Positions 5,033 through 55,804 of a DNA stretch of 60,237 nt are shown in pieces. The stretch lies in the IMG/VR virus record IMGVR_UViG_3300045303_000084, positions 1 through 60,237 of that record; one strand, written 5' to 3'. Every line of letters starts with the position of its first letter. Position 1 is the stretch's first letter. Source of the stretch: a virus. Its lineage: Duplodnaviria; Caudoviricetes. The position numbers and the translations under genes were made by a program. A model generated the notes under the pieces. The model was given only the letters and a program-made list of their open reading frames with translations. It was not told where the DNA came from and made no database searches.

Positions 5033-5056
5033 ATGGATATCCCGACTCATGAGCGG
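5033..5056 (+). pseudogene. Remnant N-terminus (MDIPTHER) of the gene now starting at 5682
   Basis: SD AGGAGA + ATG; resembles MADLVSHQE at 5682; interrupted by the antisense HNH cassette. Confidence 0.5.
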
Positions 5057-5587
5057 TTACGGCAATGGGCGATTAGCACTACGTTGCCGCATGTAGGCGC
5101 GCATGTAGCAGCGACGGCAGAAACCACGTCCCCAATGCGGCAGATCAGTTGTCTCGCATTCGATGCAGCGGTCATGCGAAACCGACCACGCTCCGGTTCT
5201 TCGAGCGACACTTGGCGCTCGCAGCGTCTTCGGATCGGCCTTGTCCCACACGATGTGGCAGTGTCCACACAGCCAGCGTACTTCTAGGGGCTTGGAATAA
5301 TCATGATGCGCAGCGGTGATCCGGCGATTCTCACAACCGCACTCTTCGCACGCCGATGCGCGCGTCAGAATGCCACGGGAGATCGCTTGAGCAACGGCAT
5401 TCGCGGCGCGCTGGATCATCCTGTGGCGCTCGATATTGGCCGCCTGCCAACGAAGGGTCTGCTCGCGTTTCCATTCCGGATGAGTTTCTGCGTAGCGCTT
5501 GACGGCTTCGCGGCTCTTTGCGGGGTTCTCAGATCGCCACTTACGCATGTCAGCGGCATGCTTTGCTCGGGTAGACTCATCACGCAT
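5057..5587 (-). CDS. HNH-type (Zn-finger) homing endonuclease
   Basis: CEECG...AAHHDYSKPLEVRWLCGHCH motif plus C-terminal CIEC...CRRC; SD GGAG. Confidence 0.8.
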   Translation of the reverse strand: MRDESTRAKHAADMRKWRSENPAKSREAVKRYAETHPEWKREQTLRWQAANIERHRMIQRAANAVAQAISRGILTRASACEECGCENRRITAAHHDYSKPLEVRWLCGHCHIVWDKADPKTLRAPSVARRTGAWSVSHDRCIECETTDLPHWGRGFCRRCYMRAYMRQRSANRPLP

Positions 5588-5666
5588 CGGGTGCTCCAAT
5601 CACTCGGTGTGCTCTGGCCCGACATTGCTCTAACAATGTCGGGCCTTTGTGCGTCAATTATACCAT
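5588..5666 (-). promoter_or_regulatory. Endonuclease-cassette leader (extended -10 + hairpin + SD)
   Basis: Minus strand TGGTATAAT-tgacGCACAAA-GGCCCGACATTG-ttagag-CAATGTCGGGCC-agagCACACC...GGAG-ATG. Confidence 0.75.
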
Positions 5667-5681
5667 CTGGTAGGAGTTGAT

Positions 5682-6050
5682 ATGGCTGACCTTGTTTCGC
5701 ATCAGGAGATAGAAGAAGCTTACAAGCAGGCAAAAGACGTGACGGCGAAACTGCCAGAAAGCACCGAGAGCCGGCGTGCGCAGGAACATCTCGGCCTGGC
5801 AGAGAAGTACGTGCATGAGGCACGGGACCGCGCGAAGGTTGATCGCGTGACAGAGCCTGAGCTTGACGCCTCCGTCGAGATGAAGATCCGCTACGACGCG
5901 GTTGTCTCTGCGCTCATCAAGCCGGAGTATCTGTCTGCCGCATGCCCGACGCACGGCAGTTCGTGCAGGGCGAACAACGCTCAGGTGTCCGGCTGGCCGT
6001 CCGCGTCGCCGGCGGCGCGGTGGACGTGGAACGACGGATCTGCACCGTGA
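5682..6050 (+). CDS. Hypothetical protein
   Basis: SD AGGAG, MADLVSHQEIEE start. Confidence 0.6.
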   Translation: MADLVSHQEIEEAYKQAKDVTAKLPESTESRRAQEHLGLAEKYVHEARDRAKVDRVTEPELDASVEMKIRYDAVVSALIKPEYLSAACPTHGSSCRANNAQVSGWPSASPAARWTWNDGSAP

Positions 6051-6061
6051 GGGGGGAAACG

Positions 6062-6442
6062 ATGATGCGCTGGTTTCGTATCGCTATGGTCGCGTTGGCG
6101 ATCAGCGCGCCGGGCTTCGGATTCGTGTCCACGGTGTCGGCGCAGAGCCTTATCGGCTCAAGCAAGGAATGCGGGACGTACGAGTTCGACGGCGACCTGG
6201 TGAAGGGCCGGACGGACGGCATGGTCGTTCGTGTCGATCACACCGAAGGCTGCTACCGCTACAAGTTCATGACCATCGTCGGCACCGGATTGACCGAGGG
6301 CTACGGCTACCCGGGCCAGCAGGCGATGTGCGAGAAGGCCGGTCGTGAGGCGGCAGTCGGCCACTTCCGCTACTACCGGGGTATGGAGATCGATCCGAGT
6401 TCGGTCAAGGTTTCCTGTACCAACTATGCGGGGCCTGACTGA
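6062..6442 (+). CDS. Secreted protein with signal peptide
   Basis: MMRWFRIAMVALAISAPGFGFVSTVSA-Q signal-like N-terminus; 4 Cys. Confidence 0.6.
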   Translation: MMRWFRIAMVALAISAPGFGFVSTVSAQSLIGSSKECGTYEFDGDLVKGRTDGMVVRVDHTEGCYRYKFMTIVGTGLTEGYGYPGQQAMCEKAGREAAVGHFRYYRGMEIDPSSVKVSCTNYAGPD

Positions 6443-6822
6443 TGGACCCGCTTGTCAAGAACATCCTCCTGTATACGCTCTCGATCCTGGCCGGCGCGCT
6501 GGCTGCCGGCCTCGGCGTGCTCGCGACGCAGCTCGCGGGTGCCGATCCAATCAACTGGCGCCCCGTGATCGCCGCTGCTATCGGCCCGATCGTGGCGGGT
6601 CTGGCGGCGTCCAGGTTGCCACGGCCAGAGGGCGCAGCGCTCGCGGCCCAGATTGACACGCTCAAGGATCAGGGCATCGCTCGGCGTGACATGGTCGTGG
6701 TGACGCAGGAGGAAGCCGTCAAAGGGATGCAGAACGCGCCGCCCCCGGATGGGGACAGGATGCCGCAGGATGCACCGCCATCCCGTCCGCGACCGCGACC
6801 ACGGCTGGAGGATGCGTCCTAA
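6442..6822 (+). CDS. Holin-like membrane protein (2 TM)
   Basis: Two hydrophobic helices separated by DPINWR; charged, Pro-rich tail. Confidence 0.55.
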   Translation: MDPLVKNILLYTLSILAGALAAGLGVLATQLAGADPINWRPVIAAAIGPIVAGLAASRLPRPEGAALAAQIDTLKDQGIARRDMVVVTQEEAVKGMQNAPPPDGDRMPQDAPPSRPRPRPRLEDAS

Positions 6823-7196: not shown

Positions 7197-7585
7197 TGGT
7201 CGCCGTCTCGATCAAAATGACCGGCTATGTTCAGGTGCTCGACAAAGTCAAGTTGTTGGGCGCTGGCGCCGAGGCTGTGAACGGTCCGATTGCCTCGTTT
7301 GGCTCGCGTCTAAGTTACGCTCGGTTCATCGAGACGGGGCGTTCCAGCCGACCGCAAGTTCGCCGCGCCGGTCCCGCGCGGATGTTCGAGTTGGGCGTAG
7401 CCGAGGCGGCGAAGCAAGCGCCTGCCCTCCTGGCACCGGCTATCCCGCGAGGTCCCGCCGCTGTGGGAGCCGCAAAAAGGCGCATTCGAGACATTGGGCT
7501 AGAAAGGATTCGGGCACTTACTCCCGTACGTAGCGGGAAGCTTAGGGCAAGTGTCAGCGAGTTGAATCGGCCGGGAATTGGGTGA
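7196..7585 (+). CDS. Tail completion/neck protein (HK97 gp10-like)
   Basis: YARFIETG and TPVRSGKLRAS motifs typical of gp10-like proteins. Confidence 0.6.
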   Translation: MVAVSIKMTGYVQVLDKVKLLGAGAEAVNGPIASFGSRLSYARFIETGRSSRPQVRRAGPARMFELGVAEAAKQAPALLAPAIPRGPAAVGAAKRRIRDIGLERIRALTPVRSGKLRASVSELNRPGIG

Positions 7586-7590
7586 TGGCG

Positions 7591-8265
7591 TCACGTCCAT
7601 CCCTTGCCGGTCACGATCAGGGAGATCGTCGCTTGCGACACGTTGAACTGTGCAGCAAGAGCCTTCTGGGAGACGGTGCCGTTCGCGTACAGCGTACGGA
7701 TCAGGATGGCTTGATCGCGATTCAGTCGGGCGTGGGGCCGGCGGGTTCGTACATCTGGATCGGCAGTGTACCCACCGCCTCTACCGATCAGGCCACGCAT
7801 CTTGGCTGCCATGTCGGCCTGATTGGCAGCGATCGCTCCGAGCCAGAGATGACCGTGCCGTTCGTACTCGATGCCATTGACAACATAGACGCCGGTGTCG
7901 TCGTGACGGACGCATCGTCGCACATCGCAAGTATGGCCGACGATCAGCCCAAGTGGTGGCGTCAATCCAGTTGCACGATACCATGCGATGTGATGGGCGA
8001 GAACATCGCCGGCCCGATAGTCTGCGGGATTGGGCAAGACACCGTAACCCTTCGCTTGCGTCCTACCCGGCCAGAGACGGCATTCTCCGTCAACGATCAG
8101 ACTCTCCCAGACTGTTGGACCGCTCCATCGACCACGCCCGCGAGAGTCGAGATAGCAGGCGCGGTTGTGAAATCGACCACGGCCAATGCTGATCGCATAA
8201 GCGCTGGCGAGGAATCCATTCCCGCACCATTCGCAGACGCGGGGGATGGTACCCTTGTTGGGCAT
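7591..8265 (-). CDS. HNH homing endonuclease (Zn-ribbon + HNH_3-type + C-terminal HTH)
   Basis: CEWCG N-terminus, CRLWPG..GYG..AHHIAW..VGHTCDVRRCV..HLWLG..NQADM, C-terminal SQKALAAQFNVSQATIS. Confidence 0.85.
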   Translation of the reverse strand: MPNKGTIPRVCEWCGNGFLASAYAISIGRGRFHNRACYLDSRGRGRWSGPTVWESLIVDGECRLWPGRTQAKGYGVLPNPADYRAGDVLAHHIAWYRATGLTPPLGLIVGHTCDVRRCVRHDDTGVYVVNGIEYERHGHLWLGAIAANQADMAAKMRGLIGRGGGYTADPDVRTRRPHARLNRDQAILIRTLYANGTVSQKALAAQFNVSQATISLIVTGKGWT

Positions 8266-8344
8266 CAGGCTCACCCCCTGGTGTCAGGCCCCGGGTGTTG
8301 CAAGCACGCCGGGGTCACTTCGTGTCTAGATTTTACCATGCCTG
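8234..8344. repeat. 111-bp exact direct repeat, copy 1 (cassette leader + first codons)
   Basis: Identical to 11652..11762 on base-by-base comparison. Confidence 0.95.
8266..8340 (-). promoter_or_regulatory. Endonuclease-cassette leader
   Basis: TGGTAAAAT-ctagACACGAAGTG-aCCCCGGCGTG-cttgcaa-CACCCGGGG-ccTGACACC-AGGGGG..ATG. Confidence 0.8.
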
Positions 8345-8365
8345 CGCATCTGGTCGGGGGCTCTG

Positions 8366-8827
8366 ATGTCTGGCTTTGACGTGGAAGCCGCACTCAATGG
8401 TCTGAAAGACCTTGTCAGCACGATTCCATCAATCGAGTCGTGTCAGATCGGCGCGCCCGAATCACTGTCGAACCGAATCAGCGCGTGGGTCGTCGTCGGC
8501 GATCCGGGGGAAATCGGATCGCGCGTTCAGGGGGTCTACGAGTTAGACCTGTCGCTGATCGTGTTTTTTGCATATGTCGTGGAAGGCCAGGAATCCGCCA
8601 GCGAAGCACAGTTGGGGGATTACATCACCGAACTCGTCCGACGATTGATCAAAAACCGAGCCGGCGCCGTCGACGGAGTCAGCAGAAACCTCAACGGTTC
8701 GGTAGACATTCTCGGCCTGCCTCAAGCAGCAGCAGGACCGGCGGATTACGCGGTCTATGCCGGCGCCGAGGGGAGGACATATCCTGTCGGCGTCAGAGTC
8801 GTGCAGCGCGAAAACCTTGGAGTCTAG
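8366..8827 (+). CDS. Tail terminator protein
   Basis: 153 aa, position between gp10-like gene and tail tube. Confidence 0.6.
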   Translation: MSGFDVEAALNGLKDLVSTIPSIESCQIGAPESLSNRISAWVVVGDPGEIGSRVQGVYELDLSLIVFFAYVVEGQESASEAQLGDYITELVRRLIKNRAGAVDGVSRNLNGSVDILGLPQAAAGPADYAVYAGAEGRTYPVGVRVVQRENLGV

Positions 8828-9649: not shown

Positions 9650-10981
9650 ATGGCCGCGAACGATCAAGGGCAGCTCTGGTCGGGCACACTTCAGATCGGC
9701 AAAGAGACGGTGGCCGGAACCGCCGTCGCCGCAACGCGGAAGCTCTACACCCGTGAGCCCGCGCTGACGGTTGAGCGCGATCCGCGCGTACACCGCTTCG
9801 CCACCACAACCCGCGACAACGTCCGCGCCTACACCAATGGCCCGGTCATGGCCGGCGGTTCGCTCTCGATGCCGATGAGCGCGGACGAAATCATCGAGAT
9901 GCTGCTGATTGGCGTTCAGGGGTCGGTCACGCCGACCACGCCAGCGGGTGACACGCTGGGACGGCTGTGGACGTTCAAGCCGGCCGGCGCCCTCGACTCG
10001 GCCACGCTCGAATGGGCAGATGGCGCGCGAACGTGGGTCGGTCCCGGTTTCAAGGGTAACTCGCTCACGATCACGGGTGCTGCCAACGAGGCGAATGACC
10101 TGTCCATTGATCTGTTCGGCAACGATGTCGTAGCAGGCTCACTGACGGGCGCGCTCTCCGAACGGGTGCCGACGTTCTTTGAGGGCTGGCAGACGCGGAT
10201 GTACATCGATCCGTTCACGGGCACGCCGGGGACGACCCCGATTCCGGGCGTTCTGCGCAACTGGACCGTCACGATCAACAACAACCTGGCGCGCGTCTAC
10301 ACCGCCGACCTCACGCTGGCGGCGAACCGCATCACGTCTGGCGAGTTGGACATGACGGCGCAGTTGACCTTTGACGCCTACCAGTCGCGCTCGTTGACCG
10401 AGTTCAACAACTGGGCGGCTGGCACACAGCGGATGGTCCGTCTTGAATTCATGGGGCCGGCTGACGAGATCGAGGCCGGTGCCAACGAGGTGCAGACCCT
10501 CACCGCGACTGGCACCCCGACCGGCGGATCGGCCACCGTCAACATTCTCGGCCAGGATGCCGTGATCGTGTTCAACAGCACGAATGCCCAGGCCCAGACA
10601 TCGATCAATGCGGCGCTTGCCGTGCTCGGGACCGGGCATACCGTCACCGTGACGGGTGGCCCCTGGCCGGGTACTGCGCTGACGGTCACGTTCACCGGCA
10701 GTCAGGTCAGCGGACGTGACATCGCGCAGGCGACGCTGACCACCAACGCCTTTACTGGCGGCACCACACCGGGCGTCACGTTCGGCACGACCACGCCAGG
10801 GCGCAACGGTCGCAAGTACGTGGCGATCGACTTGCCCGGCGCGTGGACTGCCGTGAACCTCGGCGGCTCGGCGGATGGTGTGCGGACGTACGAATTTTCC
10901 CTGCAACCAATTTATCAGACCACGCTGGCGTCAATGGGGCAGATCCTCTGCCACAACGCGCGGACGACGGCGTACGCCTAA
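9650..10981 (+). CDS. Major tail tube protein with inserted Ig-like domain
   Basis: Thr/Gly-rich 443 aa, LQIGKETVAGTAVAAT tube N-terminus, internal NEVQTLTATGTPTGG module. Confidence 0.75.
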   Translation: MAANDQGQLWSGTLQIGKETVAGTAVAATRKLYTREPALTVERDPRVHRFATTTRDNVRAYTNGPVMAGGSLSMPMSADEIIEMLLIGVQGSVTPTTPAGDTLGRLWTFKPAGALDSATLEWADGARTWVGPGFKGNSLTITGAANEANDLSIDLFGNDVVAGSLTGALSERVPTFFEGWQTRMYIDPFTGTPGTTPIPGVLRNWTVTINNNLARVYTADLTLAANRITSGELDMTAQLTFDAYQSRSLTEFNNWAAGTQRMVRLEFMGPADEIEAGANEVQTLTATGTPTGGSATVNILGQDAVIVFNSTNAQAQTSINAALAVLGTGHTVTVTGGPWPGTALTVTFTGSQVSGRDIAQATLTTNAFTGGTTPGVTFGTTTPGRNGRKYVAIDLPGAWTAVNLGGSADGVRTYEFSLQPIYQTTLASMGQILCHNARTTAYA

Positions 10982-10987
10982 GCATTC

Positions 10988-11017
10988 GGCCCGGGGTCAC
11001 TGACCCCGGGCCTTTCT
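10988..11017 (+). terminator. Intrinsic terminator after tail tube
   Basis: GGCCCGGGGTCA-c-TGACCCCGGGCC followed by TTTCT. Confidence 0.7.
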
Positions 11018-11035
11018 CGGAGGCTCAGCGTGACA

Positions 11036-11683
11036 TCAATCGACAGCAAAGGGCAGCAGTCGTTCCCGCGCGGCGCGGGCGACTTCGGCGGCCTCATGCT
11101 CCGATGCGAACACGCCGAGGTAGTGATTGACTCCCGCACTCTTGACGTACGCCATCCATTTCTGAGTCTTCTTGTGCCACGACACGCCACGGTGCGCAGA
11201 CGACGTGGCGTGGTAACTAGGTTTGTTCTGCGCGTTAGCACCTGTCGCCTTCCTATGAACACGCAGATTCGTTCGGCGGCAGTTCAGACGGTTCCGATCG
11301 ATATGGTCGACCTCCATCCCGTCGCCTTCGGTCAGTCCACAGAGATACCGATGCAGACGGATGCGGTGGTCGCGCCCGTCAATGCGTTTTGTCATGACCG
11401 CGTATCCCTTGCTCAGATGCCAGCGGTACTGACCAACGTCCTCGACGTCGTCGGCATCCACGATAGCGTTCGCGCGGACCATCCCGTGGCGATCGAAAAG
11501 CGGTACGTAGGCCGTGGTGCCATCGGCACTCAGGAGGGCACCGGACGGTGGACGACGATGAGCAAGGCTACGGCAAACGTTGGAGCAGTACAGCGCGCGT
11601 CCAACGTTGACTTGCCCGACCAGTGCCAAGAAATCGGCACCGCATTGCTGACAGACGCGGGGGATGGTACCCTTGTTGGGCAT
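11036..11683 (-). CDS. HNH-AP2 homing endonuclease with N-terminal Zn ribbon
   Basis: RLHRYL..EVDHIDRNRLNCRRTNLR HNH; SSAHRGVSWHKKTQKWMAY..YLGVF.SEHEAA AP2 domain. Confidence 0.9.
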   Translation of the reverse strand: MPNKGTIPRVCQQCGADFLALVGQVNVGRALYCSNVCRSLAHRRPPSGALLSADGTTAYVPLFDRHGMVRANAIVDADDVEDVGQYRWHLSKGYAVMTKRIDGRDHRIRLHRYLCGLTEGDGMEVDHIDRNRLNCRRTNLRVHRKATGANAQNKPSYHATSSAHRGVSWHKKTQKWMAYVKSAGVNHYLGVFASEHEAAEVARAARERLLPFAVD

Positions 11684-11762
11684 CAGGCTCACCCCCTGGT
11701 GTCAGGCCCCGGGTGTTGCAAGCACGCCGGGGTCACTTCGTGTCTAGATTTTACCATGCCTG
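11652..11762. repeat. 111-bp exact direct repeat, copy 2 (contains cassette leader 11684..11758)
   Basis: Identical to 8234..8344. Confidence 0.95.
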
Positions 11763-11782
11763 ACCAGATCAGAGAGGACGCC

Positions 11783-12226
11783 ATGAGCATAGATATTGGC
11801 CCCCCGGGGTATCAGCGAGCGAATGGAACTGCGGTGCCATCAGACGTGTCCGACCCACGCGGAAAACGCATAGCTAATAGGTGCCCCTGGCTCGATCTGC
11901 CGGAGCCGTTCGACAACCTGCGCGTCCGTTGTTGGCTTGACTATCCGCAGGACATCGCGGAGATGCTGACGGCCGAACCGGACGAGACGCCGGAGCAGGC
12001 GTCTGCACGGGTGATGGAGTTCCTGAAGGGGGTCATCCTGCAGCACGACGGCTGGGAGGCTGACGACAACGAGGGGCCGCTCCAGCAGCCCGATACTGAT
12101 GACTTTTGGCGACGCATCCCGACGCCGCTCGGCCGTGCGATCTCGGAGCGGTTCTTCGAGGAGTTGCAGGGAAACGCATCCCGCGCCTCACGCCGCAGGA
12201 AGTTCAAGACCTCTCGACGGCGCTGA
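11783..12226 (+). CDS. Tail assembly chaperone (gpG-like)
   Basis: SD GAGGA, between tube and tape measure, slippery site near its 3' end. Confidence 0.75.
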   Translation: MSIDIGPPGYQRANGTAVPSDVSDPRGKRIANRCPWLDLPEPFDNLRVRCWLDYPQDIAEMLTAEPDETPEQASARVMEFLKGVILQHDGWEADDNEGPLQQPDTDDFWRRIPTPLGRAISERFFEELQGNASRASRRRKFKTSRRR

Positions 12227-21063: not shown

Positions 21064-22643
21064 TGCCGGCGATTATGCCCAACTACCGCGTCTATGTTCG
21101 CGGCAGCGATTATCGCCGGCATGCGGAACTCTTTGACTGGGAACACCTTCAACTCAAGATCCGTTTCAACGAGGTTGGTACGTGGGCGCTGCGCATGAAT
21201 CGGAGCAGCCCTGAAGCAGCACTGATGGTGCGTCAGGCCGGCATCATCGTTACCCGCGATGACGAGACGATCTTCTCCGGTCAAGCATCAACCGAGTGGA
21301 CCCGCACCGGCACCACGCTGAGTGTCGCGGGCGTGGACGATATGGCGATCCTGGAGACACCGGCGCGCCCGGTGCCGGCCCAGGCGACGGGACCGTATGC
21401 GACACAGTTTGATACGCGGACGGGTGTCGCCAGTACCATCATGACCGCGTTTGTGTCCGATCAGGTTGGCACGACCGCGCCGTTTGGCTGGCGTATCGGC
21501 GCTATGAACATGACGGCTGATCCAGCCCTCGGATCGTCCGGGACATTCCAGGCCGAATGGGGTAAGCCGCTGATCGAGGTGCTTGGGCCATTCGCGGCCT
21601 CACCCGTGGCCGGTGGGCTCCGATTCGTCGTCCTCCAGAATGACCTAATTCCGAACACCATCACGTTCAAAGTTATGGACGTTGCCGACCTAACGCACGT
21701 TGCGAAGTTCTCGATTGCACTTGACACGGTGAAGGATTTTGAGGATACCTGGAAGTTTCCGGGCGCAAACTATGTGATGGTGGCCGGTGGCGACGCGCTT
21801 GGTGTCGATCGTACGGTAGTCGAGGGATCGAATAGCACCAGCGTTGCCGAAGTAGGGCGACGTATCGTCCAGTGGATCGATGCACGACACCTGACCACGG
21901 TCGCGCAGTTGAACCAACGGCGTGACGAGGCACTAGCAACGCTGGTGACATCTCGTCAGGTCAAGGTGACGCCGTTCAACAACCAATCGCTCGTGTTTGG
22001 CGTCCACTATGACATTGGTGACCTTGTGACGTTCGTTCTTGATGATGAGGTCTTCAACGACGTGATCCGCGAGGTAACACTCACCCTTGACCCAGAGGGA
22101 GGGGCAACGGCCGTGCCGATGCTCGGCAACACCGGCACGTCATCGGATGATCGTCTCGTCCAGCACATGAAGACGGTCGCCGCCCGTGTCAATCGTCTGG
22201 AGCGGTACTACGCGATGCCGGATGGCGCGATCCTGGCGCCGATGCTCGGGACGGGTGCGGTGGGCTCGACTGCGCTGGCGTCCGGCGCTGCTGCTGCTAA
22301 TCTTGGCTCCGGCAGCGTCAGCTCCTCGATGCTGGCTGCCGGCGCTGCCGTGTCGAATATCGGGTACACACCGGCCCGGGTATCTGCGAGTAGCTACACC
22401 GGGGACAACGCTGCGACGCGCACAATCAGCGTGGGATTCACGCCGATCTGGGTCCAGGTCACCTCGCCCGGCAACAGCGCAACGCTCTATCTGGGCGACG
22501 GGACGCGGCTGGTTCTGGAGGCCAGCGGCGATGTGATTGCCGGGCAGAGCGGCGGATTCGTCGCTGGTGGCTTCACCGCCCGTCATGACGGCAACAGCAA
22601 CAACGCGAGCGGCGTCACGTACTACTACACCGCGATTGGATGA
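21063..22643 (+). CDS. Baseplate hub / minor tail protein (ReqiPepy6 gp37-like)
   Basis: RFNEVGTWAL, NYVMVAGG, FGVHYDIGDLVT motifs; follows Dit. Confidence 0.75.
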   Translation: MPAIMPNYRVYVRGSDYRRHAELFDWEHLQLKIRFNEVGTWALRMNRSSPEAALMVRQAGIIVTRDDETIFSGQASTEWTRTGTTLSVAGVDDMAILETPARPVPAQATGPYATQFDTRTGVASTIMTAFVSDQVGTTAPFGWRIGAMNMTADPALGSSGTFQAEWGKPLIEVLGPFAASPVAGGLRFVVLQNDLIPNTITFKVMDVADLTHVAKFSIALDTVKDFEDTWKFPGANYVMVAGGDALGVDRTVVEGSNSTSVAEVGRRIVQWIDARHLTTVAQLNQRRDEALATLVTSRQVKVTPFNNQSLVFGVHYDIGDLVTFVLDDEVFNDVIREVTLTLDPEGGATAVPMLGNTGTSSDDRLVQHMKTVAARVNRLERYYAMPDGAILAPMLGTGAVGSTALASGAAAANLGSGSVSSSMLAAGAAVSNIGYTPARVSASSYTGDNAATRTISVGFTPIWVQVTSPGNSATLYLGDGTRLVLEASGDVIAGQSGGFVAGGFTARHDGNSNNASGVTYYYTAIG

Positions 22644-22726
22644 CCATAGTGGACTACCGCCATGCTGGTATGGGATGGAGTAACGGCCCGATCGAGGGCG
22701 GAAACAGCCGCATCCTCTCGCTGCCG
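22640..22726 (+). pseudogene. Remnant N-terminus of endolysin (MTIVDYRHAGMGW...ILSLP)
   Basis: ATGA-coupled; resembles MKHAGIHF...ILGMP at 23328; frame stays open to 23317. Confidence 0.55.
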
Positions 22727-23257
22727 TCACGAGTTGTGCCCCCACCATTTGCCTCGGCCCTTTGCTCTCATATCGGCTTGATTGGCTGCTGGTGTTCCAA
22801 GCCAGAGATGCCCGCGCCGTTCATAGGCCACGCCTTCAACGACATAGGTGCCGGCGGTGTCGTTACGGACACAGGCCGGATTATCTCCACCGGGGCAGTC
22901 GTGACAGACATACTCCCAGCGCGTTGGCCAGTGGCCCGTCGCAAGAAACCACGCTGCTTTAGACATCGTGGTCGACGTTTTTACTCCGTCCGGACGGACC
23001 GCGATGATGACGCCATAACCGAATGCGTGATGGCCGCCCGTTGCCACCCAGCAAGAGTGTGTCTTCTTGACACGTGGCCAGAATCGGTCCGGAAGTGGCG
23101 ACAATACGTGATCTCGCGACCGCTGCTCTGCCGAGCACGCAAACGAGCAGAATTTGACATTGCGATCGCTTCTCAGGCGAGTGGGGCCGCCGCAGACGAG
23201 GCACGTTCCCGTACCAATGTAGTTGCAGTACCGGCGCGTGGTACGATCGGGATGCAT
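22727..23257 (-). CDS. HNH homing endonuclease (Zn-ribbon + HNH_3-type)
   Basis: CLVCG..FCSFAC; RFWPRV..CWV.TG..GYG..VCHDCPGGDNPACV..HLWLGT..NQADM. Confidence 0.85.
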   Translation of the reverse strand: MHPDRTTRRYCNYIGTGTCLVCGGPTRLRSDRNVKFCSFACSAEQRSRDHVLSPLPDRFWPRVKKTHSCWVATGGHHAFGYGVIIAVRPDGVKTSTTMSKAAWFLATGHWPTRWEYVCHDCPGGDNPACVRNDTAGTYVVEGVAYERRGHLWLGTPAANQADMRAKGRGKWWGHNS

Positions 23258-23330
23258 CTGGTCACTCCAGGTGTCAGCCCCCGGCGGTGGCGACCGTGCG
23301 GGGGCACTTCGTGTTGAGAATTATACCATG
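23258..23330 (-). promoter_or_regulatory. Endonuclease-cassette leader
   Basis: TGGTATAAT-tctcaACACGAAGTG-CCCCCG...CGGGGG-cTGACACC-tGGAG..ATG. Confidence 0.8.
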
Positions 23331-25439
23331 AAACACGCAGGGATTCACTTTCCGGAGAACGCCGGCGGCGAGCATCCAAACATTGAAACTATCCTGGGGA
23401 TGCCCGGCATCAGCCACGGCTGTACGCTCATCTGCGCCCCATCAGCTCGGTACTGGTATAGACAGGCTCGCGGTGCATCACCTCTCGTCGTCTGGCGAGC
23501 GATCCCACGCCAGGGGGCGCTACCGGCGCAACTCAACTGGATCGGGAAGCGAGTTGCAGACGAATGTCTCAACCTTTGGGACGAACAACCGCATGGTGGC
23601 ATTGAGCACTTTACGCCGCTGAACGAACTGCAATTCGTCAAAGAGGCCGGCGAGGTTTTTCGCTCGTATGCTGAAACAGCCTCGAAGCTATCGAACGTGC
23701 GCATTGCCCTGCGCCAACGCTTCGACGCGCTCGGTCAGACGGTCCGGCTGATGTTCCCGGCCTGGGTGCCTCAGGATGACATGGACCGAATCCTCGAATG
23801 GGAAGACGAGGCGCGGCAGTGGGACACCATCGGCCTGCACTGCTACGGCAGCGCGGAGACGATGCGGACGCGGTACGACAGTTACCGAGCCGCGTTCCCA
23901 GACCATCCGATCTTCGTCGGTGAGTGGAACGCCAACCACGAGGGGCACGACGAGCACGCCGCGCTCCAGATGTGGGCCGAGGTTTCCAATACCGATCCCG
24001 GATTCACGGGGGCGACCTACTACATCTGGGAGACTCGGAATCAGGGTGAGGCCGACCTGTCCATCTGGGGCAACCCCGCCCGCCTCGTCCTCTTCCAGAA
24101 TCCGCCGACCGTTGCCGAACCAGAGGATCCGGTAGAACCGGAGGATCCTGAGATGCCGACGCTTGATCCGTGGCAGTATTGGACTCCCGACGCCTTGGCA
24201 ACGCTCATCCAGTGTCCGCGTGACGCGGTGGCGACGAATTGGCCCAAACTCTGCGAACAACTCGGCCACGTCGCGCGGCAAACGGGGCAAGACATCTTCC
24301 TGACGAAAGACACGCTCGTCGCGCTGGCTTCCACGGTGGCGATTGAGACGGCGCACCGCTTCCAACCAATCCACGAGTACAGGATGGCTGACGGCTCGAT
24401 CCCGGCCTACTGGTACACCTACGACGGCGGGCCGGAGTACCACGGTCGCGGCTTCATCCAGAACACGCACAAGTACAACTACGCCGACCTTGGTCCGAAG
24501 ATCGCGGCACTGTGGGGTGCCGGTCCGAATGACTTTGACTTCGTCGCCCGTCCCGATGATTTGCTCGATCCCGATCTTTCGGCAGCAGCATCAGCCATCT
24601 ACTTTCGCGACCATGCCCGCGAAGACGGTGATGGCATCCCAGAGGCAGCGTCTCGGGGTGATTGGCGCGCGGTTCGTCAGCTCGTTCAGGGTGCTGATGC
24701 TGGGCTTACTGAGCTGATATCCTACGCAACGGCACTCGGGGGAACCGTCGTCCCGCCAGTGGACGATACGACGTCCTACAGCGTCAATGTACCTGACGAC
24801 GTCGTCCTTCAGCAGAACAATTGGTCGTGCGCTGTGCGATCGACGTACGCAGCGCTCTGGGCAATGGCACAGGTTGCGCAGGGCGAGCCGGTCACGTACG
24901 GCGACGAGGGGCTACGCGACGTATATGAGTGGATGGTGCCGGCTTTGGCCGATGCCTCAGTCGGGCTCCATGATGGTAGTGGCGCGCAGCTCGCAGCCAT
25001 GCTCCGTGACAAGGGGTACGATGCCGAGAGCGTCTATCCATGCTCCATCGAGCAGGTACGCGAGCGAGCCGGTACAGAGCCGGTCCTGATCGGCGGCGCG
25101 GCCTGGAATCACTGGAGCTACGTGCGCGGGAAGCACGCCGATGGGGGGTTGATCCTGGAGAACCCGTCCCCCGGCCACGATGGTATCACCGACTACATCA
25201 GAGATAGTTGGGGGCGTCTCGGACCGTTCTCGGCAGTGTTCATCCGCCAATCTGTACCCGTTGAGCCGGAGCATACACTGCCGACGTATGAAGACCTGGC
25301 AAACCTGGAGGGCGTCGCCTATCACGATAACGGCGTCGTGATCCCAGCGCTGGAGGGGGCGAAGGCGGTCGGTGACTGGTCACAGGTTGACGCCGTCGTC
25401 AAGTTTCTCCGTGATAACGATCCTCACAAGGCCGCCTGA
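23328..25439 (+). CDS. Multi-domain endolysin (GH-A-like TIM barrel + GH19 + C39-like peptidase)
   Basis: TPLNEL...GLHCY...IFVGEWN; IETAHRF..IHE...YHGRGFIQNTHKYNY (GH19); QQNNWSCAVRS...WNHWSYV...LENP. Confidence 0.75.
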   Translation: MKHAGIHFPENAGGEHPNIETILGMPGISHGCTLICAPSARYWYRQARGASPLVVWRAIPRQGALPAQLNWIGKRVADECLNLWDEQPHGGIEHFTPLNELQFVKEAGEVFRSYAETASKLSNVRIALRQRFDALGQTVRLMFPAWVPQDDMDRILEWEDEARQWDTIGLHCYGSAETMRTRYDSYRAAFPDHPIFVGEWNANHEGHDEHAALQMWAEVSNTDPGFTGATYYIWETRNQGEADLSIWGNPARLVLFQNPPTVAEPEDPVEPEDPEMPTLDPWQYWTPDALATLIQCPRDAVATNWPKLCEQLGHVARQTGQDIFLTKDTLVALASTVAIETAHRFQPIHEYRMADGSIPAYWYTYDGGPEYHGRGFIQNTHKYNYADLGPKIAALWGAGPNDFDFVARPDDLLDPDLSAAASAIYFRDHAREDGDGIPEAASRGDWRAVRQLVQGADAGLTELISYATALGGTVVPPVDDTTSYSVNVPDDVVLQQNNWSCAVRSTYAALWAMAQVAQGEPVTYGDEGLRDVYEWMVPALADASVGLHDGSGAQLAAMLRDKGYDAESVYPCSIEQVRERAGTEPVLIGGAAWNHWSYVRGKHADGGLILENPSPGHDGITDYIRDSWGRLGPFSAVFIRQSVPVEPEHTLPTYEDLANLEGVAYHDNGVVIPALEGAKAVGDWSQVDAVVKFLRDNDPHKAA

Positions 25440-48781: not shown

Positions 48782-49002
48782 GGCTTTACAGCATGACCAG
48801 AGACGGCGCCTGGCGCGGCTATACACGCGAGGCGTTCCGAGAGTTGCGGCATGGCCGAGACGTGCGCTGGGCGCTTCGGACACTCTGGAAGATGCTTGGT
48901 CCGGGTCTTCATATCGGCATGATGTCGTATGAGGCCCGGTTTGGCCCGTTCATCCTTGCGCATTGGCGTGGCGGTGAGCAGCGTTGGAAGATTGGCGCAT
49001 GA
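48778..49002 (+). CDS. Hypothetical protein
   Basis: ATGA-coupled at both ends. Confidence 0.45.
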   Translation: MRLYSMTRDGAWRGYTREAFRELRHGRDVRWALRTLWKMLGPGLHIGMMSYEARFGPFILAHWRGGEQRWKIGA

Positions 49003-49036
49003 GCCTACAAGCGGTCCTGTCGCGCTACCCAGAATA

Positions 49037-49115: not shown

Positions 49116-49763
49116 GTGAGTGTACCACCGACTGGGCGAGCGTGCGTTGCTTGCGGTGAATGGAAGTCAGCCGAGCACTTCTACGGACATAAGCGGGGTA
49201 TCAACGGACTCACAGGTCGTTGTAAGTCCTGCTACCGAGTATACCAGCAGGCTTGGCGTGAAAATAACGCCGCGCTGATGCGAGAGCGCACAAGAGCATA
49301 CAACCGGCGACATCGAGCCAAAAATCCTCGTTTGGCTGTTCAGCGGGCTCAGGCATACCGAGCCGCGAACTACGTTACGGTGATGGCTCGCGAAGCTCGT
49401 TTCCGAGAAGAGAATCGGGAGCGTTTGTTAGCTCGCCGCCGCGAGTTGAGGCAGCAGGCGCGGGAACGCTACACCGCGTATCACTACGCCTGGATCGCTC
49501 GCCGGAAGGCGAATGGCGGATCGTTTACGTCGGAAGAATGGGCGAGGCTTTGCAGCTTCTACGGCGGAAGGTGTCTCGCCTGTGGCCGTGTCGCGAAACT
49601 GACGGTTGACCATGTTGTGCCGGTATCGCGTGGCGGCTCGGACGACATCAGCAATCTTCAACCGCTCTGTGGCCCGTGCAATTCCCGAAAGGGGAACCGG
49701 CGGATTATCGACTACCGTCCGTTCTCGTCACTGCTCGACGGGAGTTGTATGTGTCTGTCCTGA
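49116..49763 (+). CDS. HNH homing endonuclease
   Basis: CVACGEWK...F...CKSC; CLACG..LTVDHVVPVSRGGSDDISNLQPLCGPCNSRKG. Confidence 0.85.
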   Translation: MSVPPTGRACVACGEWKSAEHFYGHKRGINGLTGRCKSCYRVYQQAWRENNAALMRERTRAYNRRHRAKNPRLAVQRAQAYRAANYVTVMAREARFREENRERLLARRRELRQQARERYTAYHYAWIARRKANGGSFTSEEWARLCSFYGGRCLACGRVAKLTVDHVVPVSRGGSDDISNLQPLCGPCNSRKGNRRIIDYRPFSSLLDGSCMCLS

Positions 49764-51382
49764 CGAGTCTGCAAGGGTTCTTTGGAGGGGCATCAACGAG
49801 CCTCAATGGTTCGGCCTATCCGTATCGTGCGCACGTTGCATCACGAGTTACGGCGCAGGATCTCCCGCCCAGGGCGTTGTATGACTTCTTGAAGACGATG
49901 TATCTTTCGGTGGGCGCTTACGATGACATGCGTTTGGGGTGGGCTGCGACCGGCTACAGCTCGCCGTCACTCAAGGCGATCAGAAACCCCGTTACCGCCG
50001 TTGTGGACGTTCTGGGCTCCAAGTTGTATCCCGAGCCGCTGACGGTTACCACGCCGCGTACGCAGGGTTTGACGAGTCAGCAAGAGCGGCAACAGGCCGA
50101 GCAGGACGACCCGATCAAGGCGGCCATCGATCAGGTACAGCTCTGGTCAAACTGGGGACGCGCCAAGCGCAAGCACGCCAGATGGGTCAGTCTGTACGGT
50201 GAGGCGTTCATCAAGGTCGTGGCCGATCCGATCGCTGGCCGCGTCTACTACGAACTGATCGAGCCGCAGTACGTGACGGATTACAGCATCGACGTGCGCG
50301 ACTTCATCACCAGTATCCGCCTCGACATCCCGCAGTGTGACGTGGACCGAAACGGCAGGCGACATTGGGTCCATACCGAGGCGTGGGACAAGGATCTCCA
50401 GAGCGTCCGCATTTGGCGTACGGACGGCATGCTCGATAGCGTGACGAATCGTTCACTGGACGACCTCGGTACACCCGTCATCGAGATGTCTCTCTCAGCC
50501 TTTGGCATCGACTTCGTGCCGATCTGCCGTGCGCCGTTCCGTGAGATTGATGACGGTCGTGCGCTCGGCGCCGTACAGCCGGCGTTAGAAGCCATCATCG
50601 AGGGCGACCTGTCAGCCACCAATCTGCATAGCCTGGTGTTCTCGGACCTGGCCGGCGCGAAGGTGCTCAAGAGCATCGGCAATGACGCGACCGGGCGTCC
50701 GTTCGCGCCGCCCCAGGTTGCTGCCGCCAACGCAGACGGGCAGAACGGCCGACAGACGGACAACACCGTCCTTGTCGGCAAGCGTGAGTTCTGGCGCCTG
50801 CCCGGCAACCAGGAATTGCAGGATGTGATTCCGAACATCAATTACGCCGCCGCGCTCGCTATCCTTCAGGATCATGACCAGCACCTAGAGCGATTGCTCC
50901 CAGCATTGGGCTATATCCGTATCAGCGAAATGTCTGGTGGCGACCTGTCCGGCAAGGCGATCACGTACAAGATGCGCGCCTTTGTGGATCAGGTCGAGGA
51001 AGGACGGAGCAACGTCCTGGCCTGCCTGAAGCAAGCCGACATGATGGCGTTGACGATGGGGCAGGCGGCCGGCATCTTCTCGGATCTCGGATCGTTCGAG
51101 GCTGGCGACTTCGAGCATTCCTACCAGGACGAGCCGATCCTTCACATTTCGACGCTGGACGAGGCCGAGGAAGAACGTACCAGGGCACAGGCTGCGCAGG
51201 CGTACGCGGCGGCTGGCATCCCGATGTCGGTCATTCTCACCGGACCGCTGGAGATGACCGAGGATGAGGCCGCTGAGGTCGTGGACGAAGCGACGGCAGA
51301 GGCAGAGCAAGCCTTCCAGCAGCAGCAAGAGCTGGCAGCCGCACAACCGGCACCGGGAGATGGCAATGGCCCGCCTCAGTGA
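49751..51382 (+). CDS. Portal protein
   Basis: ~540 aa after TerL; IRNPV..VVD, YGEAFIKV, FGIDFVPI, LSGKAI; SD GGGAG + GTG. Confidence 0.8.
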   Translation: MSVLTSLQGFFGGASTSLNGSAYPYRAHVASRVTAQDLPPRALYDFLKTMYLSVGAYDDMRLGWAATGYSSPSLKAIRNPVTAVVDVLGSKLYPEPLTVTTPRTQGLTSQQERQQAEQDDPIKAAIDQVQLWSNWGRAKRKHARWVSLYGEAFIKVVADPIAGRVYYELIEPQYVTDYSIDVRDFITSIRLDIPQCDVDRNGRRHWVHTEAWDKDLQSVRIWRTDGMLDSVTNRSLDDLGTPVIEMSLSAFGIDFVPICRAPFREIDDGRALGAVQPALEAIIEGDLSATNLHSLVFSDLAGAKVLKSIGNDATGRPFAPPQVAAANADGQNGRQTDNTVLVGKREFWRLPGNQELQDVIPNINYAAALAILQDHDQHLERLLPALGYIRISEMSGGDLSGKAITYKMRAFVDQVEEGRSNVLACLKQADMMALTMGQAAGIFSDLGSFEAGDFEHSYQDEPILHISTLDEAEEERTRAQAAQAYAAAGIPMSVILTGPLEMTEDEAAEVVDEATAEAEQAFQQQQELAAAQPAPGDGNGPPQ

Positions 51383-53364: not shown

Positions 53365-53374
53365 TTTGCAAAGA

Positions 53375-54121
53375 TTACACAGATGGCTTTTGAGGCAGTC
53401 CGCGATGATTGAGCGCGCGAATCTCAGCGATAAGCGGTACGCGAGCGGCGAGGGTTTCGTCGCTGACCCATCGTGGGGCTTTGCCTCCGCGCGTGTATCC
53501 GAGGTCGCTGAGAGCCAGCACGATCTCTGCTTGCCGATGCTTGATCTTCAAGTACGGCAGGAGTCTTCGGCAGAGACGGACTGCTTCGGTGCCACCCGCA
53601 TACCAGTTCTGCACTGGCTTGTGGATACCCGGGCGAACGGCTCTCGGAGCGGTCAGGTATCCGCCGAACGTCTTTGCTACCCACTGCATAACGGGCTCGT
53701 AGGTATTCGCCATCATCAGTCGGCAGTGCATGCTCTCGTTCCCGGTGCTCGGGCTCGTCGTCATGCGGACAGTAATGGTGCCCTCGCCATCGATCAGGCC
53801 GGCGAAGTAGATGAGATCGCGCTCGTCGTCTGGAATGATGACCGGGACGTTTTCTGCGGCGCTCTTGCACTCGAAGCTACAGAACCGTTGCGGCTTGGCC
53901 GCGTTCGGTGCGTGCGGCCGGAACTCGGCGCCGCATTGCTCGCAGGGCATGACGACGGTGTGTCCTGTCCCCTTGAGCGGCGACGGACGGCCCTTGCTGC
54001 CGACACCACGGCATGTCGCGGAGCAGTAGCGGACGGCTCGTTGCTTGACGCGGAACGGCTCAACGAGGAACTCGGAGCCGCAGACCTCGCATGTGCGGGG
54101 CATGGTACGCTTTTGGGGCAT
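53375..54121 (-). CDS. LAGLIDADG homing endonuclease with two N-terminal Zn ribbons
   Basis: YFAGLIDGEGTI motif; LLPYLKIKHRQA...IRALN; CEVCG..YCS.TC and CEQCG..FCSFEC. Confidence 0.9.
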   Translation of the reverse strand: MPQKRTMPRTCEVCGSEFLVEPFRVKQRAVRYCSATCRGVGSKGRPSPLKGTGHTVVMPCEQCGAEFRPHAPNAAKPQRFCSFECKSAAENVPVIIPDDERDLIYFAGLIDGEGTITVRMTTSPSTGNESMHCRLMMANTYEPVMQWVAKTFGGYLTAPRAVRPGIHKPVQNWYAGGTEAVRLCRRLLPYLKIKHRQAEIVLALSDLGYTRGGKAPRWVSDETLAARVPLIAEIRALNHRGLPQKPSV

Positions 54122-54200
54122 CAGATCCTCCAACGGTCTGGTGTCACGCCCCGGGCTGTTTCTACCAGCGCCGGGGCTTCATCGTGCCTGAAGTATACCG
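54122..54200 (-). promoter_or_regulatory. Endonuclease-cassette leader
   Basis: CGGTATACT-tcagGCACGAtgaa-GCCCCGGCGCTG-gtagaaa-CAGCCCGGGGC-gTGACACC...GGAGG..ATG. Confidence 0.8.
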
Positions 54201-54220
54201 TCTACCAGGAGGGATGACCG

Positions 54221-54475
54221 ATGCCAAAGAAAGACGATGCGCCCGAGCTGACCGTCTGCGACGGCTGCGGGATGGAGCGCGACGACGTGAACGGCGACGG
54301 CTACTGCCCGGCCTGTGCTGAGCGCCGCGCCGATGATCCACAGGTCACGGTGCAGGGTCGCGCGCTGACCGTCTCCGAACTGGAGATGCAGGCCGAGGAC
54401 GACGAGCACCTGGCAGCAGCGCTCAAAGGCGATAGCGTGCAGGATCAGATCAAGGTGGCAAAGGCGGATCGGTGA
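54221..54475 (+). CDS. Small Zn-binding protein
   Basis: SD AGGAGG; CDGCG...YCPAC. Confidence 0.55.
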   Translation: MPKKDDAPELTVCDGCGMERDDVNGDGYCPACAERRADDPQVTVQGRALTVSELEMQAEDDEHLAAALKGDSVQDQIKVAKADR

Positions 54476-54690
54476 ACGAGATGGGTCAGTGTCGGGATTG
54501 CCGCTGGTGGGAAGTTTCCGCGCAGGAGCAGGATAGCGGTAAGCGATTCTGTGGCCTGGCTACCAGTGACGATGGCGTGGCGCTCCATACGGAAACACCG
54601 TTTTGGGCAGTAGCAACAGATGGCGGCGAGGCGGTCGTCTTTACGAGTCCAGACTTCGGCTGCGTCCAGTTCGAGAGGAAAGAATCGTGA
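54472..54690 (+). CDS. Small Cys-rich protein
   Basis: CRDCRWW...C...TSPDFGCVQF. Confidence 0.55.
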   Translation: MNEMGQCRDCRWWEVSAQEQDSGKRFCGLATSDDGVALHTETPFWAVATDGGEAVVFTSPDFGCVQFERKES

Positions 54691-54770
54691 GCGCCGTTGC
54701 CGATGTCCTCAAGACGATGGACCCGGCCGCCCTGCGCGCCCGTGTGACAGGTCGGCCGTGGTGGCGGGTG
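54687..54770 (+). pseudogene. Remnant N-terminus of the gene now starting at 55379
   Basis: MSAVADVLKTMDPAALRARVTGRPWWRV aligns with MNVARMLIPLEMHARLKGRSYWRM. Confidence 0.65.
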
Positions 54771-55301
54771 TCAGTCATCATCGCCAACGACATCGACGTA
54801 GCGATGCTCGAATTTGGGTCCATAGCGCCAAGTTTGCCGGTGTCGCTCCGGGTCTGTCCGGGCGAAGTGTCGATCTCCCGTAGGCAAGCGTCCTCGCTCA
54901 GAAGCGTCAGCCATGTTGTCAGCCTGGGTGCCGAGCGAGAGATGCCGAATGTTGCAACACGGGGGATTGTCGCACGCATGCCGGACCTTCAATCCGGGAG
55001 GAATCGGACCGTACGACAACTCCCAAGCCACTCGGTGAGCCTTAGCAGGCCGGCTATTGACGCTGACCTGTCCGTAGCCTCGCCCATCGGTCGCCCCGAT
55101 CCATACGTGGCACTCATTGGGCGTTCCGAGTCGCACCTTGTCCCAGAACCGATCTGCAATAGGGACTCGGCGGCTCGAATGGAGACTGTCGCGGCAGCCC
55201 AGACTGCAAACCTTGCCTCGATTTCCACGAATTCTCGACGGTGTCGTGGTGAAGGTAGATCCGCAGTATGCGCAGTCTCGCGTGATAGGATTTGGACGCA
55301 T
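54771..55301 (-). CDS. HNH homing endonuclease (Zn-ribbon + HNH_3-type)
   Basis: CAYCG..VCSLGC; RFWDKV..CHVWIG..GYG..KAHRVAW..VRHACDNPPCCNIRHLSLGTQADNMAD. Confidence 0.9.
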   Translation of the reverse strand: MRPNPITRDCAYCGSTFTTTPSRIRGNRGKVCSLGCRDSLHSSRRVPIADRFWDKVRLGTPNECHVWIGATDGRGYGQVSVNSRPAKAHRVAWELSYGPIPPGLKVRHACDNPPCCNIRHLSLGTQADNMADASERGRLPTGDRHFARTDPERHRQTWRYGPKFEHRYVDVVGDDD

Positions 55302-55381
55302 CGGAAGTACATCCCTTCTGGTGCCACGTCCCCGGCAGTTCGCGCTGCGCGGGGGCTCTCTTGTGCCGGAATTATACCATG
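55302..55381 (-). promoter_or_regulatory. Endonuclease-cassette leader
   Basis: TGGTATAAT-tccgGCACAAgagag-CCCCCGCGCAG-cgcgaa-CTGCCGGGG-acgTGGCACC-agaAGGGA..ATG. Confidence 0.8.
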
Positions 55382-55804
55382 AATGTCGCGCGTATGCTGA
55401 TTCCACTCGAAATGCACGCTCGTCTGAAGGGGCGTTCCTATTGGCGTATGCGCTTCATCGACGGTCGCACGATTGATGAGCGTGACGTGGACTGGAGTCT
55501 CGCGCCGCAACGAGGGAGGATGGCCCTGCAACTGGTCTGCCCGGATGGTCAAATTGCTCAGGTCGGGAATACACAAGACTCGACGGGAAGACTTTTCCAA
55601 CTGAAAGCCGGCGCACTGACCGGCTCGACGCGGAGCACTGACGCGCACCTGATCGGGATCGTGCATGGCACGGACGGGCAGGCGACGGTCGCTGCCTGGG
55701 AGTACGGCCCGAAGCGGCTCGTGACATTTGAGGACAACGTGTGGAATGTTCGATACCGGGGCATCGGGCGCCTGAATTTCGATGTTCTCGGGATCAGGGG
55801 GTAA
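55379..55804 (+). CDS. Hypothetical protein
   Basis: ATG embedded in the cassette's -10 extension. Confidence 0.6.
   Translation: MNVARMLIPLEMHARLKGRSYWRMRFIDGRTIDERDVDWSLAPQRGRMALQLVCPDGQIAQVGNTQDSTGRLFQLKAGALTGSTRSTDAHLIGIVHGTDGQATVAAWEYGPKRLVTFEDNVWNVRYRGIGRLNFDVLGIRG

Follow-up and report, generated by a model that had tools for sequence, protein, structure and literature searches.

Among described systems, the nearest to the one reported here comes from fungal mitochondria, where mobile endonuclease open reading frames (mORFs) carry the C-terminus of a foreign gene and leave the native end downstream, as in atp6, atp9, cox2 and nad3 of Glomus, with an Allomyces atp6 case cited in the same paper (PMC3630166). 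The present analysis concerns seven nuclease gene cassettes, labelled c1 to c7, in the IMG/VR virus record IMGVR_UViG_3300045303_000084. The whole record of 60,237 bases was analysed and is referred to as the window; it is a contig of a temperate siphophage from soil, with a G+C content of about 63% and an estimated completeness of 72%. Our reading is that free-standing homing-endonuclease cassettes probably travel with the 5' end of the adjoining gene and replace the resident start.

Shared with the mORFs are the insertion of an endonuclease open reading frame (ORF) together with a diverged foreign gene end, the retention of the native end as a relic, a native copy that resembles close relatives while the inserted copy does not, and an ORF that is often in phase with the host gene (PMC3630166). 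The mORFs differ in lying at the 3' end, on the same strand and in mitochondria, whereas the cassettes described here lie in a phage and at the N-terminus, with six of the seven nucleases antisense and equipped with their own promoter; avoidance of host-strand stop codons goes unmentioned in the available portion of that account (PMC3630166). The phage cassettes work like the terminus replacement of mORFs, in mirror image, but are not members of that family.

The seg and mob genes of T4-like phages likewise lie between or beside genes, co-convert flanking markers and may undergo illegitimate repair if one flank lacks homology, but they are placed between intact genes, and neither a gene-start relic nor an antisense open-frame arrangement is described in the portion of the source consulted (PMC2988022). 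The marks of free-standing homing endonucleases found in the window are the nuclease families themselves and co-conversion, seen as chimeras of the portal gene and of the gene starting at 55379. In the ShiLan-type hidden HNH genes of actinophage methylases the insert similarly creates no stops in the host frame; they differ in being on the same strand in another frame and inside the gene, so that the host protein carries the insert, and the article as available describes no duplicated gene end and lacks the words 'antisense', 'reverse' and 'opposite' (PMC11855218). The nucleases of the window, unlike these, are antisense (c4 being in frame) and stand upstream of a complete gene. Nuclease genes of ICP1 and other phages also cluster by essential genes and mark recombination boundaries, but 'remnant' occurs 0 times in the consulted part of that text, its 2 uses of 'duplicat' are unrelated, and the fragmented genes are joined by splicing (PMC10448857). 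Full-text literature searches, which covered few subscription journals and no supplements, turned up neither an account of N-terminal relics next to nuclease genes of phages nor one of antisense nuclease genes that are stop-free.

The arrangement would offer intron-less nucleases a route, checkable in sequence, into the conserved starts of essential genes (portal, endolysin and tail genes) with a working gene retained, and it would account for N-termini of phage structural genes whose ancestry is unlike that of the rest of the gene.

Nuclease cassettes and relics of gene starts

All seven cassettes are placed precisely at the 5' ends of genes on the plus strand, six with the nuclease antisense and one (c4) with the nuclease in sense orientation. 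An earlier note on this sequence had placed nuclease cassettes at gene 5' ends, and every nuclease ORF that it named proved real by comparison with Pfam and PHROGs: all seven nucleases matched PHROG endonuclease families (6.7e-9 to 1.3e-34) and four of them (c2, c4, c6 and c7) passed Pfam HNH or HNH_3. In order along the window, and on the minus strand except for c4, these are the HNH-like c1 (5057-5587; phrog_2340 endonuclease, 2e-19; no Pfam match); c7, an HNH_3 nuclease with a helix-turn-helix (HTH) part (7591-8262; HNH_3 1.1e-5; phrog_826, 3e-10); c2, with HNH_3 and an AP2-like part (11036-11680; HNH_3 6.5e-8; phrog_99, 3e-29), whose AP2 match of 28.8 bits lies under the cut-off; c3 (22727-23257; phrog_1872, 6.7e-9); the HNH nuclease c4 on the plus strand (48999-49763; HNH 3.1e-14; phrog_1035, 2.6e-30); c5 (53375-54121; phrog_5046, 2.6e-24, labelled HNH endonuclease by PHROGs); and the HNH_3 nuclease c6 (54771-55301; HNH_3 3.1e-15; phrog_1872, 1.3e-34). 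The family assignment of c5 is uncertain, a LAGLIDADG-like motif being visible by eye while LAGLIDADG_1 scores 17.4 bits, under the Pfam cut-off. Cassette c7, at the start of gene 8366-8827, was missing from the earlier note, and c5 stood outside the five pairs of old and new gene starts that it compared. The C-terminal part of the c3 nuclease shares 74% DNA identity with c7 over 114 nt. No Rfam family, group I introns included, reached its gathering score in the window, and no splicing is needed, because a complete N-terminus follows each cassette. Two further HNH genes in sense orientation (33699-34496 and 43775-44218, both +) lie in the early region and served as internal controls.

Relics of the old gene starts were sought with hidden Markov models (HMMs) built from the N-termini of homologues, with the window's own protein excluded, in a scan of the window in all six frames, which gave 2331 fragments with 116,702 residues. 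The homologue sets, counted with the window's own protein, comprised 53 sequences for the endolysin, 23 for gene 55379, 28 for the portal and 35 for gene 5682, with E<=0.001 required for membership in the endolysin and gene 5682 sets. As far as sequence comparison goes, the upstream peptides are true N-termini of the downstream gene families, and this is supported in four of the five pairs that had been proposed.

In c6, the relic consists of 28 codons (54687..54770, +), with SAVADVLKTMDPAALRARVTGRPWWRV following a GTG that overlaps the upstream stop (GTGA), and ranks second after the gene itself with E 3.1e-8, which bears out the proposed pair 54687/55379. Its target is the gene at 55379..55804 (+), which encodes a 141-aa protein of unknown function (P0054). 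The relic is identical to the N-termini of P0069 and P0072 at 16/24 residues each and to that of P0059 at 14/24, as against 8/24 for the current N-terminus of gene 55379 and 6/24 for P0055; that current N-terminus, for its part, agrees with P0055 at 18/24.

The relic of c4 consists of the first 10 portal codons, MSLQAVLSRY (48999..49028, +), fused in frame to the nuclease ORF, and ranks second after the portal itself (E 0.012). It matches the portal N-termini of P0079 and P0090 at 9/10 residues and the current portal start at 3/10. The nuclease is translated from this old portal start, and its phage homologues align only from residues 37-47 on. The portal gene proper (49751..51382, +) begins at GTG 49751 (MSVLTSLQGFFGG). 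The earlier note had paired MSLQ of the relic with TSLQ of the portal; the relic itself stands, but that match is in a shifted register, because the relic reads MSLQAVLSRY and the current portal N-terminus reads MSVLTSLQGF. HNH proteins of the HK97 gp74 type, encoded beside terminase and portal genes, assist DNA packaging, and the c4 HNH gene likewise lies between the large terminase and portal genes. Unlike the gp74 type, c4 looks like an insertion, because it starts with 10 portal codons and overlaps the replaced portal start.

In c3, 29 N-terminal codons of an endolysin (MTIVDYRHAGMGW...ILSLP; 22640..22726, +) begin with an ATG that overlaps the upstream stop (ATGA). This relic ranks third with E 0.12 and is convincing only because it falls within the few dozen codons in which a relic would be expected, so that the proposed pair 22640/23328 holds more weakly, its significance depending on position. 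The endolysin gene (23328..25439, +) has a family-typical N-terminus (MKHAGIHFPENAGGEHP...), the family N-termini reading M[KR]HAG... and in some members M.DYRHAG. The relic differs at P9, G14 and P17, each invariant in 34 aligned sequences, and with these three family-invariant residues changed it looks old and decayed. In c3 and c6 the relic and its replacement share 56-58% DNA identity.

In c1, a native ribosome-binding site (GGTAGGAG) is followed by eight codons, MDIPTHER, of gene 5682 (5033..5056, +); the site is duplicated, being present twice, and the target gene (5682..6050, +) carries the replaced N-terminus MADLVSHQE.... The pair 5033/5682 is weakly borne out. The relic agrees by eye with the closest homologue, P0106 (MDLPTHEV), at 6/8 residues and ranks third with E 1.3, which is not significant window-wide and gains significance only because the peptide lies inside the gap of about 30 codons where a relic is predicted.

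The pairing of MTSID with MSIDIG (11030/11783) finds no support. The 'SID' in it is the antisense of the c2 nuclease's own last codons, just two codons (GTG ACA) stand before the nuclease stop, and the DNA there agrees with the new start at only 5/18 bases. What c2 retains is an orphaned start, a ribosome-binding site GGAGG with GTG ACA (11030..11035, +). In c7 the orphaned start is a GTG overlapping the upstream stop (GTGA) plus two codons (7582..7590, +), too short for similarity. Together with c5, these cassettes retain just 2-3 'relic' codons.

Ancestry of the present gene starts and their junctions

Comparison of gene starts with gene bodies indicated separate ancestries. Residues 61-543 of the portal are 86-92% identical to P0079, whose N-terminus matches the c4 relic, while residues 1-10, 11-20 and 21-34 are 30%, 60% and 21% identical to it; these first residues (1-34) resemble portals that are otherwise just 42-52% identical. 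The breakpoint was placed at residues 32-41 (maximum chi-square, p=5e-5). In gene 55379, residues 1-75 are identical to P0055 at 63/75 positions and to P0059 at 39/75, and for residues 76-141 the order is reversed (38/66 for P0055, 48/66 for P0059), with the breakpoint at residues 69/70 (maximum chi-square, 20,000 permutations, p=5e-5). Gene 5682 gave the same chimera pattern weakly (residues 9-14, p=0.088, maximum chi-square). On this evidence it is supported, strongly for two genes and weakly for one, that relic and gene body belong together and that the present start is the newcomer. The earlier claim of a foreign 5' end joined inside the gene accordingly holds for the portal and gene 55379 and weakly for gene 5682, and finds no support in the endolysin. 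These breakpoints establish, at the level of sequence, the right-hand join as a homologous crossover inside the gene. Measured from the right-hand end of the relic, they fall 1-41 codons further on, past the duplicated part, and a converted tract reaching that far beyond the duplication is the outcome expected from resection and repair from a cut near the junction.

For the endolysin, eight of eight loci from metagenomes start with M[KR]HAG directly after the upstream gene, and by eye none of the eight has a cassette module in the 150 nt upstream; the upstream neighbours vary among relatives. In Mycobacterium phage Minerva an HNH gene lies directly upstream of lysin A, and no likeness was seen between the N-termini of the HNH protein and of the lysin.

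The left-hand junctions are uniform. In six of six antisense cassettes no spacer separates the relic from the stop codon of the nuclease, and the relic is in phase there in c1, c3 and c6, where the relic is defined by homology, and in c2, where it is defined by the ribosome-binding site. The junction of c6 falls just after the invariant W22, that of c3 between the invariant P26 and G27, and that of c4 beside the nearly invariant R9 and F11. The relic possibly serves as a left homology arm.

A common 5' module was found in all six antisense cassettes although their nuclease domains differ. In c6 (55302..55385, -) it comprises an extended -10 element (TGGTATAAT), a GC hairpin, TGACACCAG and a ribosome-binding site, and further copies occupy 23258-23334, 11681-11762, 8263-8344, 54122-54206 and 5588-5672, all on the minus strand, the hairpin loop being variable. 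The window contains 8 copies of the motif TWTACCAT where 0.67 would be expected, and c2 and c7 are 100% identical over 111 nt across the promoter, 5' untranslated region (UTR) and first codons. The ATG of the endolysin lies inside the cassette promoter motif TATACCATG, and so does the start codon of gene 55379; neither gene has a ribosome-binding site of its own at its new start. A second predicted stem could cover the ribosome-binding site.

Host-strand frames and codon usage of the nucleases

The plus-strand frame in phase with the nuclease codons is open in five of the six antisense cassettes, with one stop in c1, and the relic's start codon falls in the same phase. An open host-strand frame means that the nuclease avoids TTA, CTA and TCA, and by their near-absence from the antisense nucleases the host-strand frame comes to span the distance from the old to the new start codon. 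The resulting bridging ORFs, all on the plus strand, terminate at or close to the replaced start or run into the gene. In c7 the bridging ORF (7582..8379) ends 13 nt inside the next gene (start 8366); in c2 (11030..12226) it is in frame with the downstream gene, called a chaperone in the earlier note (start 11783, alternative 11756); in c3 (22640..23317) it ends 10 nt before the endolysin ATG 23328; in c5 (53366..54217) it has a TTG start without a clear ribosome-binding site and ends 3 nt before ATG 54221; and in c6 (54687..55382) it stops at a TGA that shares bases with the next gene's ATG (ATGA). The frame of c1 ends 1 nt before the new start. In the sense cassette c4 the portal start overlaps the end of the nuclease ORF, fused to the portal relic, by 13 nt. 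Long host-strand ORFs of this kind can be mistaken for genes during annotation, and the entry of this portal in a public protein collection (P0077) falls 42 residues short of the start to which the aligned homologues point, with 501 aa in place of 543 and an internal TTG start; the overlapping nuclease ORF probably misled the gene caller.

Codon counts agree with the open frames. Among 1217 codons of the six antisense nucleases a single TTA, CTA or TCA was found, in c1, as against 11/666 in the three sense-strand nucleases (Fisher 8e-5) and 96/9254 in 20 control genes of the phage (Fisher 1.7e-4). From the leucine and serine content and the codon usage of the phage, 11.2 such codons would be expected (Poisson 1.6e-4). 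Codons ending in A are commoner in the antisense nucleases than in other genes (13.6% vs 8.6%), and TTA, CTA and TCA make up 1/166 of these against 10.8% (binomial 1.2e-7).

A pattern made from the 5' module located three other viral contigs, L012-L014, with antisense HNH genes of 308, 252 and 266 codons. These contain TTA, CTA or TCA in 0/826 codons, against 10/1078 in host-strand ORFs of the same contigs (Fisher 0.0066). In every one of them an ATG that forms part of an ATGA overlap is in phase with the nuclease stop, and a bridging ORF (340, 283 and 297 codons) ends at the new start. Since the three nucleases are 41-58% identical to each other, they count as one further element lineage and not as three. 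Judged on these contigs, the codon signature is partly replicated outside the window.

It could be argued that the open host-strand frames are a by-product of high G+C ('shadow ORFs') and amino-acid content, translation across the cassette being irrelevant. Equal-length control windows from 20 genes are indeed open in the antisense phase in 15.6%, 11.9%, 7.8% and 4.4% of cases for 177, 200, 227 and 252 codons, the wider survey described below gives a trend only, and the codon test was post hoc. This account is nevertheless unlikely in view of the deficit against the 11.2 expected codons, of the sense-strand nucleases, which have a similar composition and contain 11 such codons in 666, and of the recurrence of the signal in L012-L014 despite protein identities of 41-58%; moreover, the two genes that have no ribosome-binding site at the new start, the endolysin gene and gene 55379, have that start at the stop of a bridging ORF. 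We infer that the open frames reflect selection for translation across the cassette, which would keep coupling and avoid polarity. If this is true, a selfish element has been shaped by the need to avoid polarity in the operon of its host, and the codon signature would offer an easily tested sign that a selfish gene is under selection for its effects on the opposite strand.

One further and unrelated viral contig, L025, repeats the full relic architecture. There (2033-3210) an antisense gene with HNH_3 and HTH lies between a 67-aa relic ORF and a complete 126-aa gene with an SLT (transglycosylase) domain. The relic ORF aligns with residues 7-60 of the SLT gene product with a score of 114, reached by 0/2000 shuffles, and stops a few residues short of the ES motif in the SLT domain. 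L026 is a duplicate of this arrangement from another sample, and among the 80 viral loci with distant HNH_3 homologues this was the one that showed the full architecture.

Proposed mechanism and its alternatives

The mobile unit would consist of the nuclease gene, the shared promoter and 5' UTR module and, from a foreign allele of the gene beside it, the first ~10-70 codons. The resident allele may be cut near the junction of relic and cassette, and repair would then copy the cassette together with the adjacent donor 5' segment. Such entry would replace the resident gene start and strand its ribosome-binding site, start codon and first 2-29 codons upstream, while the diverged replacement would escape the nuclease. 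The divergence between relic and replacement in c3 and c6 would, in addition, limit loss of the cassette by recombination between the repeats. Ribosomes from the orphaned start are proposed to cross the cassette and to terminate at or beside the new start codon, so that coupling is kept and polarity in the late operon avoided, and in c4, the sense cassette, this bridging would fall to the nuclease ORF itself, joined as it is to the portal relic. Translation of this kind would matter most for the endolysin and gene 55379, because their new starts have no ribosome-binding site. We tentatively extend this, with rather less confidence than the replacement of gene starts itself, to the proposal that these may be distinct, long-adapted composite homing elements of high-G+C phages, which enter essential genes at their starts with neither intron nor intein and have been purged of TTA, CTA and TCA for translation through the antisense nuclease to the replaced start.

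Several observations weigh against the proposed replacement of gene starts and translation across the cassettes. Donor DNA was seen for no cassette and empty-site DNA for none of c1, c4 and c6, the homologues being proteins only, while nuclease cleavage, the cut sites and the immunity of the replaced alleles are predictions. No chimerism appears in the endolysin among the compared N-termini, its current start being of the type of its closest relatives. For c7, c2 and c5, with relics of 2-3 codons, the open frame itself supplied the phase, so that the reasoning is partly circular; the open frames had been noticed before the codon test was made, and the bridging frame of c1 has its one in-frame stop. 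Over the cassettes the plus strand has no excess of C over G and is not rich in C (skew -0.02 to +0.06; late genes, +0.03), so nothing points specifically to Rho. In L025 the relic ORF lies outside the bridging frame. The 80-locus survey, which used crude home-made gene calls, counted 44 loci after exclusion of those below 58% G+C, with identical nucleases or with too few flanking codons (L045 being an empty ORF). Nucleases antisense to both neighbours contained 9 TTA, CTA or TCA codons against 9.9 expected (6 loci; observed/expected 0.91) and sense nucleases 21 against 9.7 (8 loci; observed/expected 2.17), so that codon avoidance in the survey is a trend only. Five of 14 antisense-context loci are open throughout and one of 14 has a relic; with only 5/14 open, the codon and open-frame feature is not general to antisense HNH genes.

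The left-hand join admits another account, in which a double-strand break is repaired one-sidedly, by homology within the gene, and the unresected left end is freshly joined at the cut site by an illegitimate event. T4 introns offer a documented case of one-sided homing in which illegitimate repair takes place at microhomologies, according to the available part of a review (PMC2988022, citing Parker et al. 1999). The existence of relics agrees with this account, and homology on the left may often be lacking, given that relatives have different neighbours upstream of the endolysin. We consider it improbable all the same. Independent illegitimate joins are expected to scatter unless strongly filtered by selection, whereas in each of the six antisense cassettes the relic is directly adjacent to the nuclease stop, in phase wherever it can be defined independently, the junction style is the same in L012-L014, and the codon signature needs long residence in this orientation. 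The earlier note's illegitimate join at the cut site is not borne out by such uniform junctions, which, as far as they can be read, fit elements long adapted to this arrangement no worse than they fit fresh joins of an illegitimate kind.

Ordinary mosaicism, produced at gene boundaries by recombination that is illegitimate or uses short homologies, with the nuclease genes as passengers and not the cause, is a much fainter prospect. Phage genomes are mosaic, the N-termini of these families do vary among relatives, and the nuclease role is a prediction from sequence; but duplicated 5' segments flank the nuclease in 4/7 cassettes and again in L025, the breakpoints lie where conversion tracts from a cut at the relic end would be expected to place them, and the junctions fall at conserved motifs. 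In-place duplication of a 25-90 bp target, with the copies diverging within the lineage and no foreign allele involved, can scarcely be right even though the copies of c3 and c6 are homologous, for both versions match alleles of other phages (the N-terminus of gene 55379 that of P0055, its relic that of P0072, the portal relic that of P0079) and the converted tract reaches past the duplicated part.

Relatives of the window were searched for widely. The 50,697 cultured-phage records contained none by DNA (megablast) or by four window proteins (tblastn); scans of viral contigs with gene 55379, the endolysin and their alignments, and of genome contigs with the portal and gene 55379 alignments, gave no match. 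Among sequencing runs the stretch was found only in the probable source run, whose contigs have the same arrangement and contain no cassette-free joint; two joints listed for that run have sides of 21-25 letters and are not credible. Distant homologues of the window's nucleases come mostly from actinophages, which makes an actinobacterial host a reasonable guess and no more.

As for the remainder of the phage, an integrase gene and an HTH repressor-like gene lie on the minus strand, while the plus-strand run comprises the large terminase, portal, scaffold, major head protein, tape measure, tail and endolysin genes. Between the large terminase gene and the portal relic, a 74-aa ORF of no known family (48778-49002, +) has ATGA overlaps at both ends. 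The sense HNH gene at 33699-34496 stands just upstream of a DNA methylase gene (34718-35920), and its product has in common with most of the antisense nucleases an N-terminal zinc-finger-like segment, CxxC...[FYV]CSxxC; zf-FCS matches below the cut-off occur in contigs L012 and L014. Two more copies of TATACCAT face each other in a strand-switch region (27913-27920, +, and 28000-28007, -) and may be the phage's own divergent promoters of the cassette-promoter type. Finally, a strong, terminator-like hairpin (GGCCCGGGGTCACTGACCCCGGGCC, then TTTCT) occupies 10982-11029, right after gene 9650-10981 and just before the orphaned start of c2.

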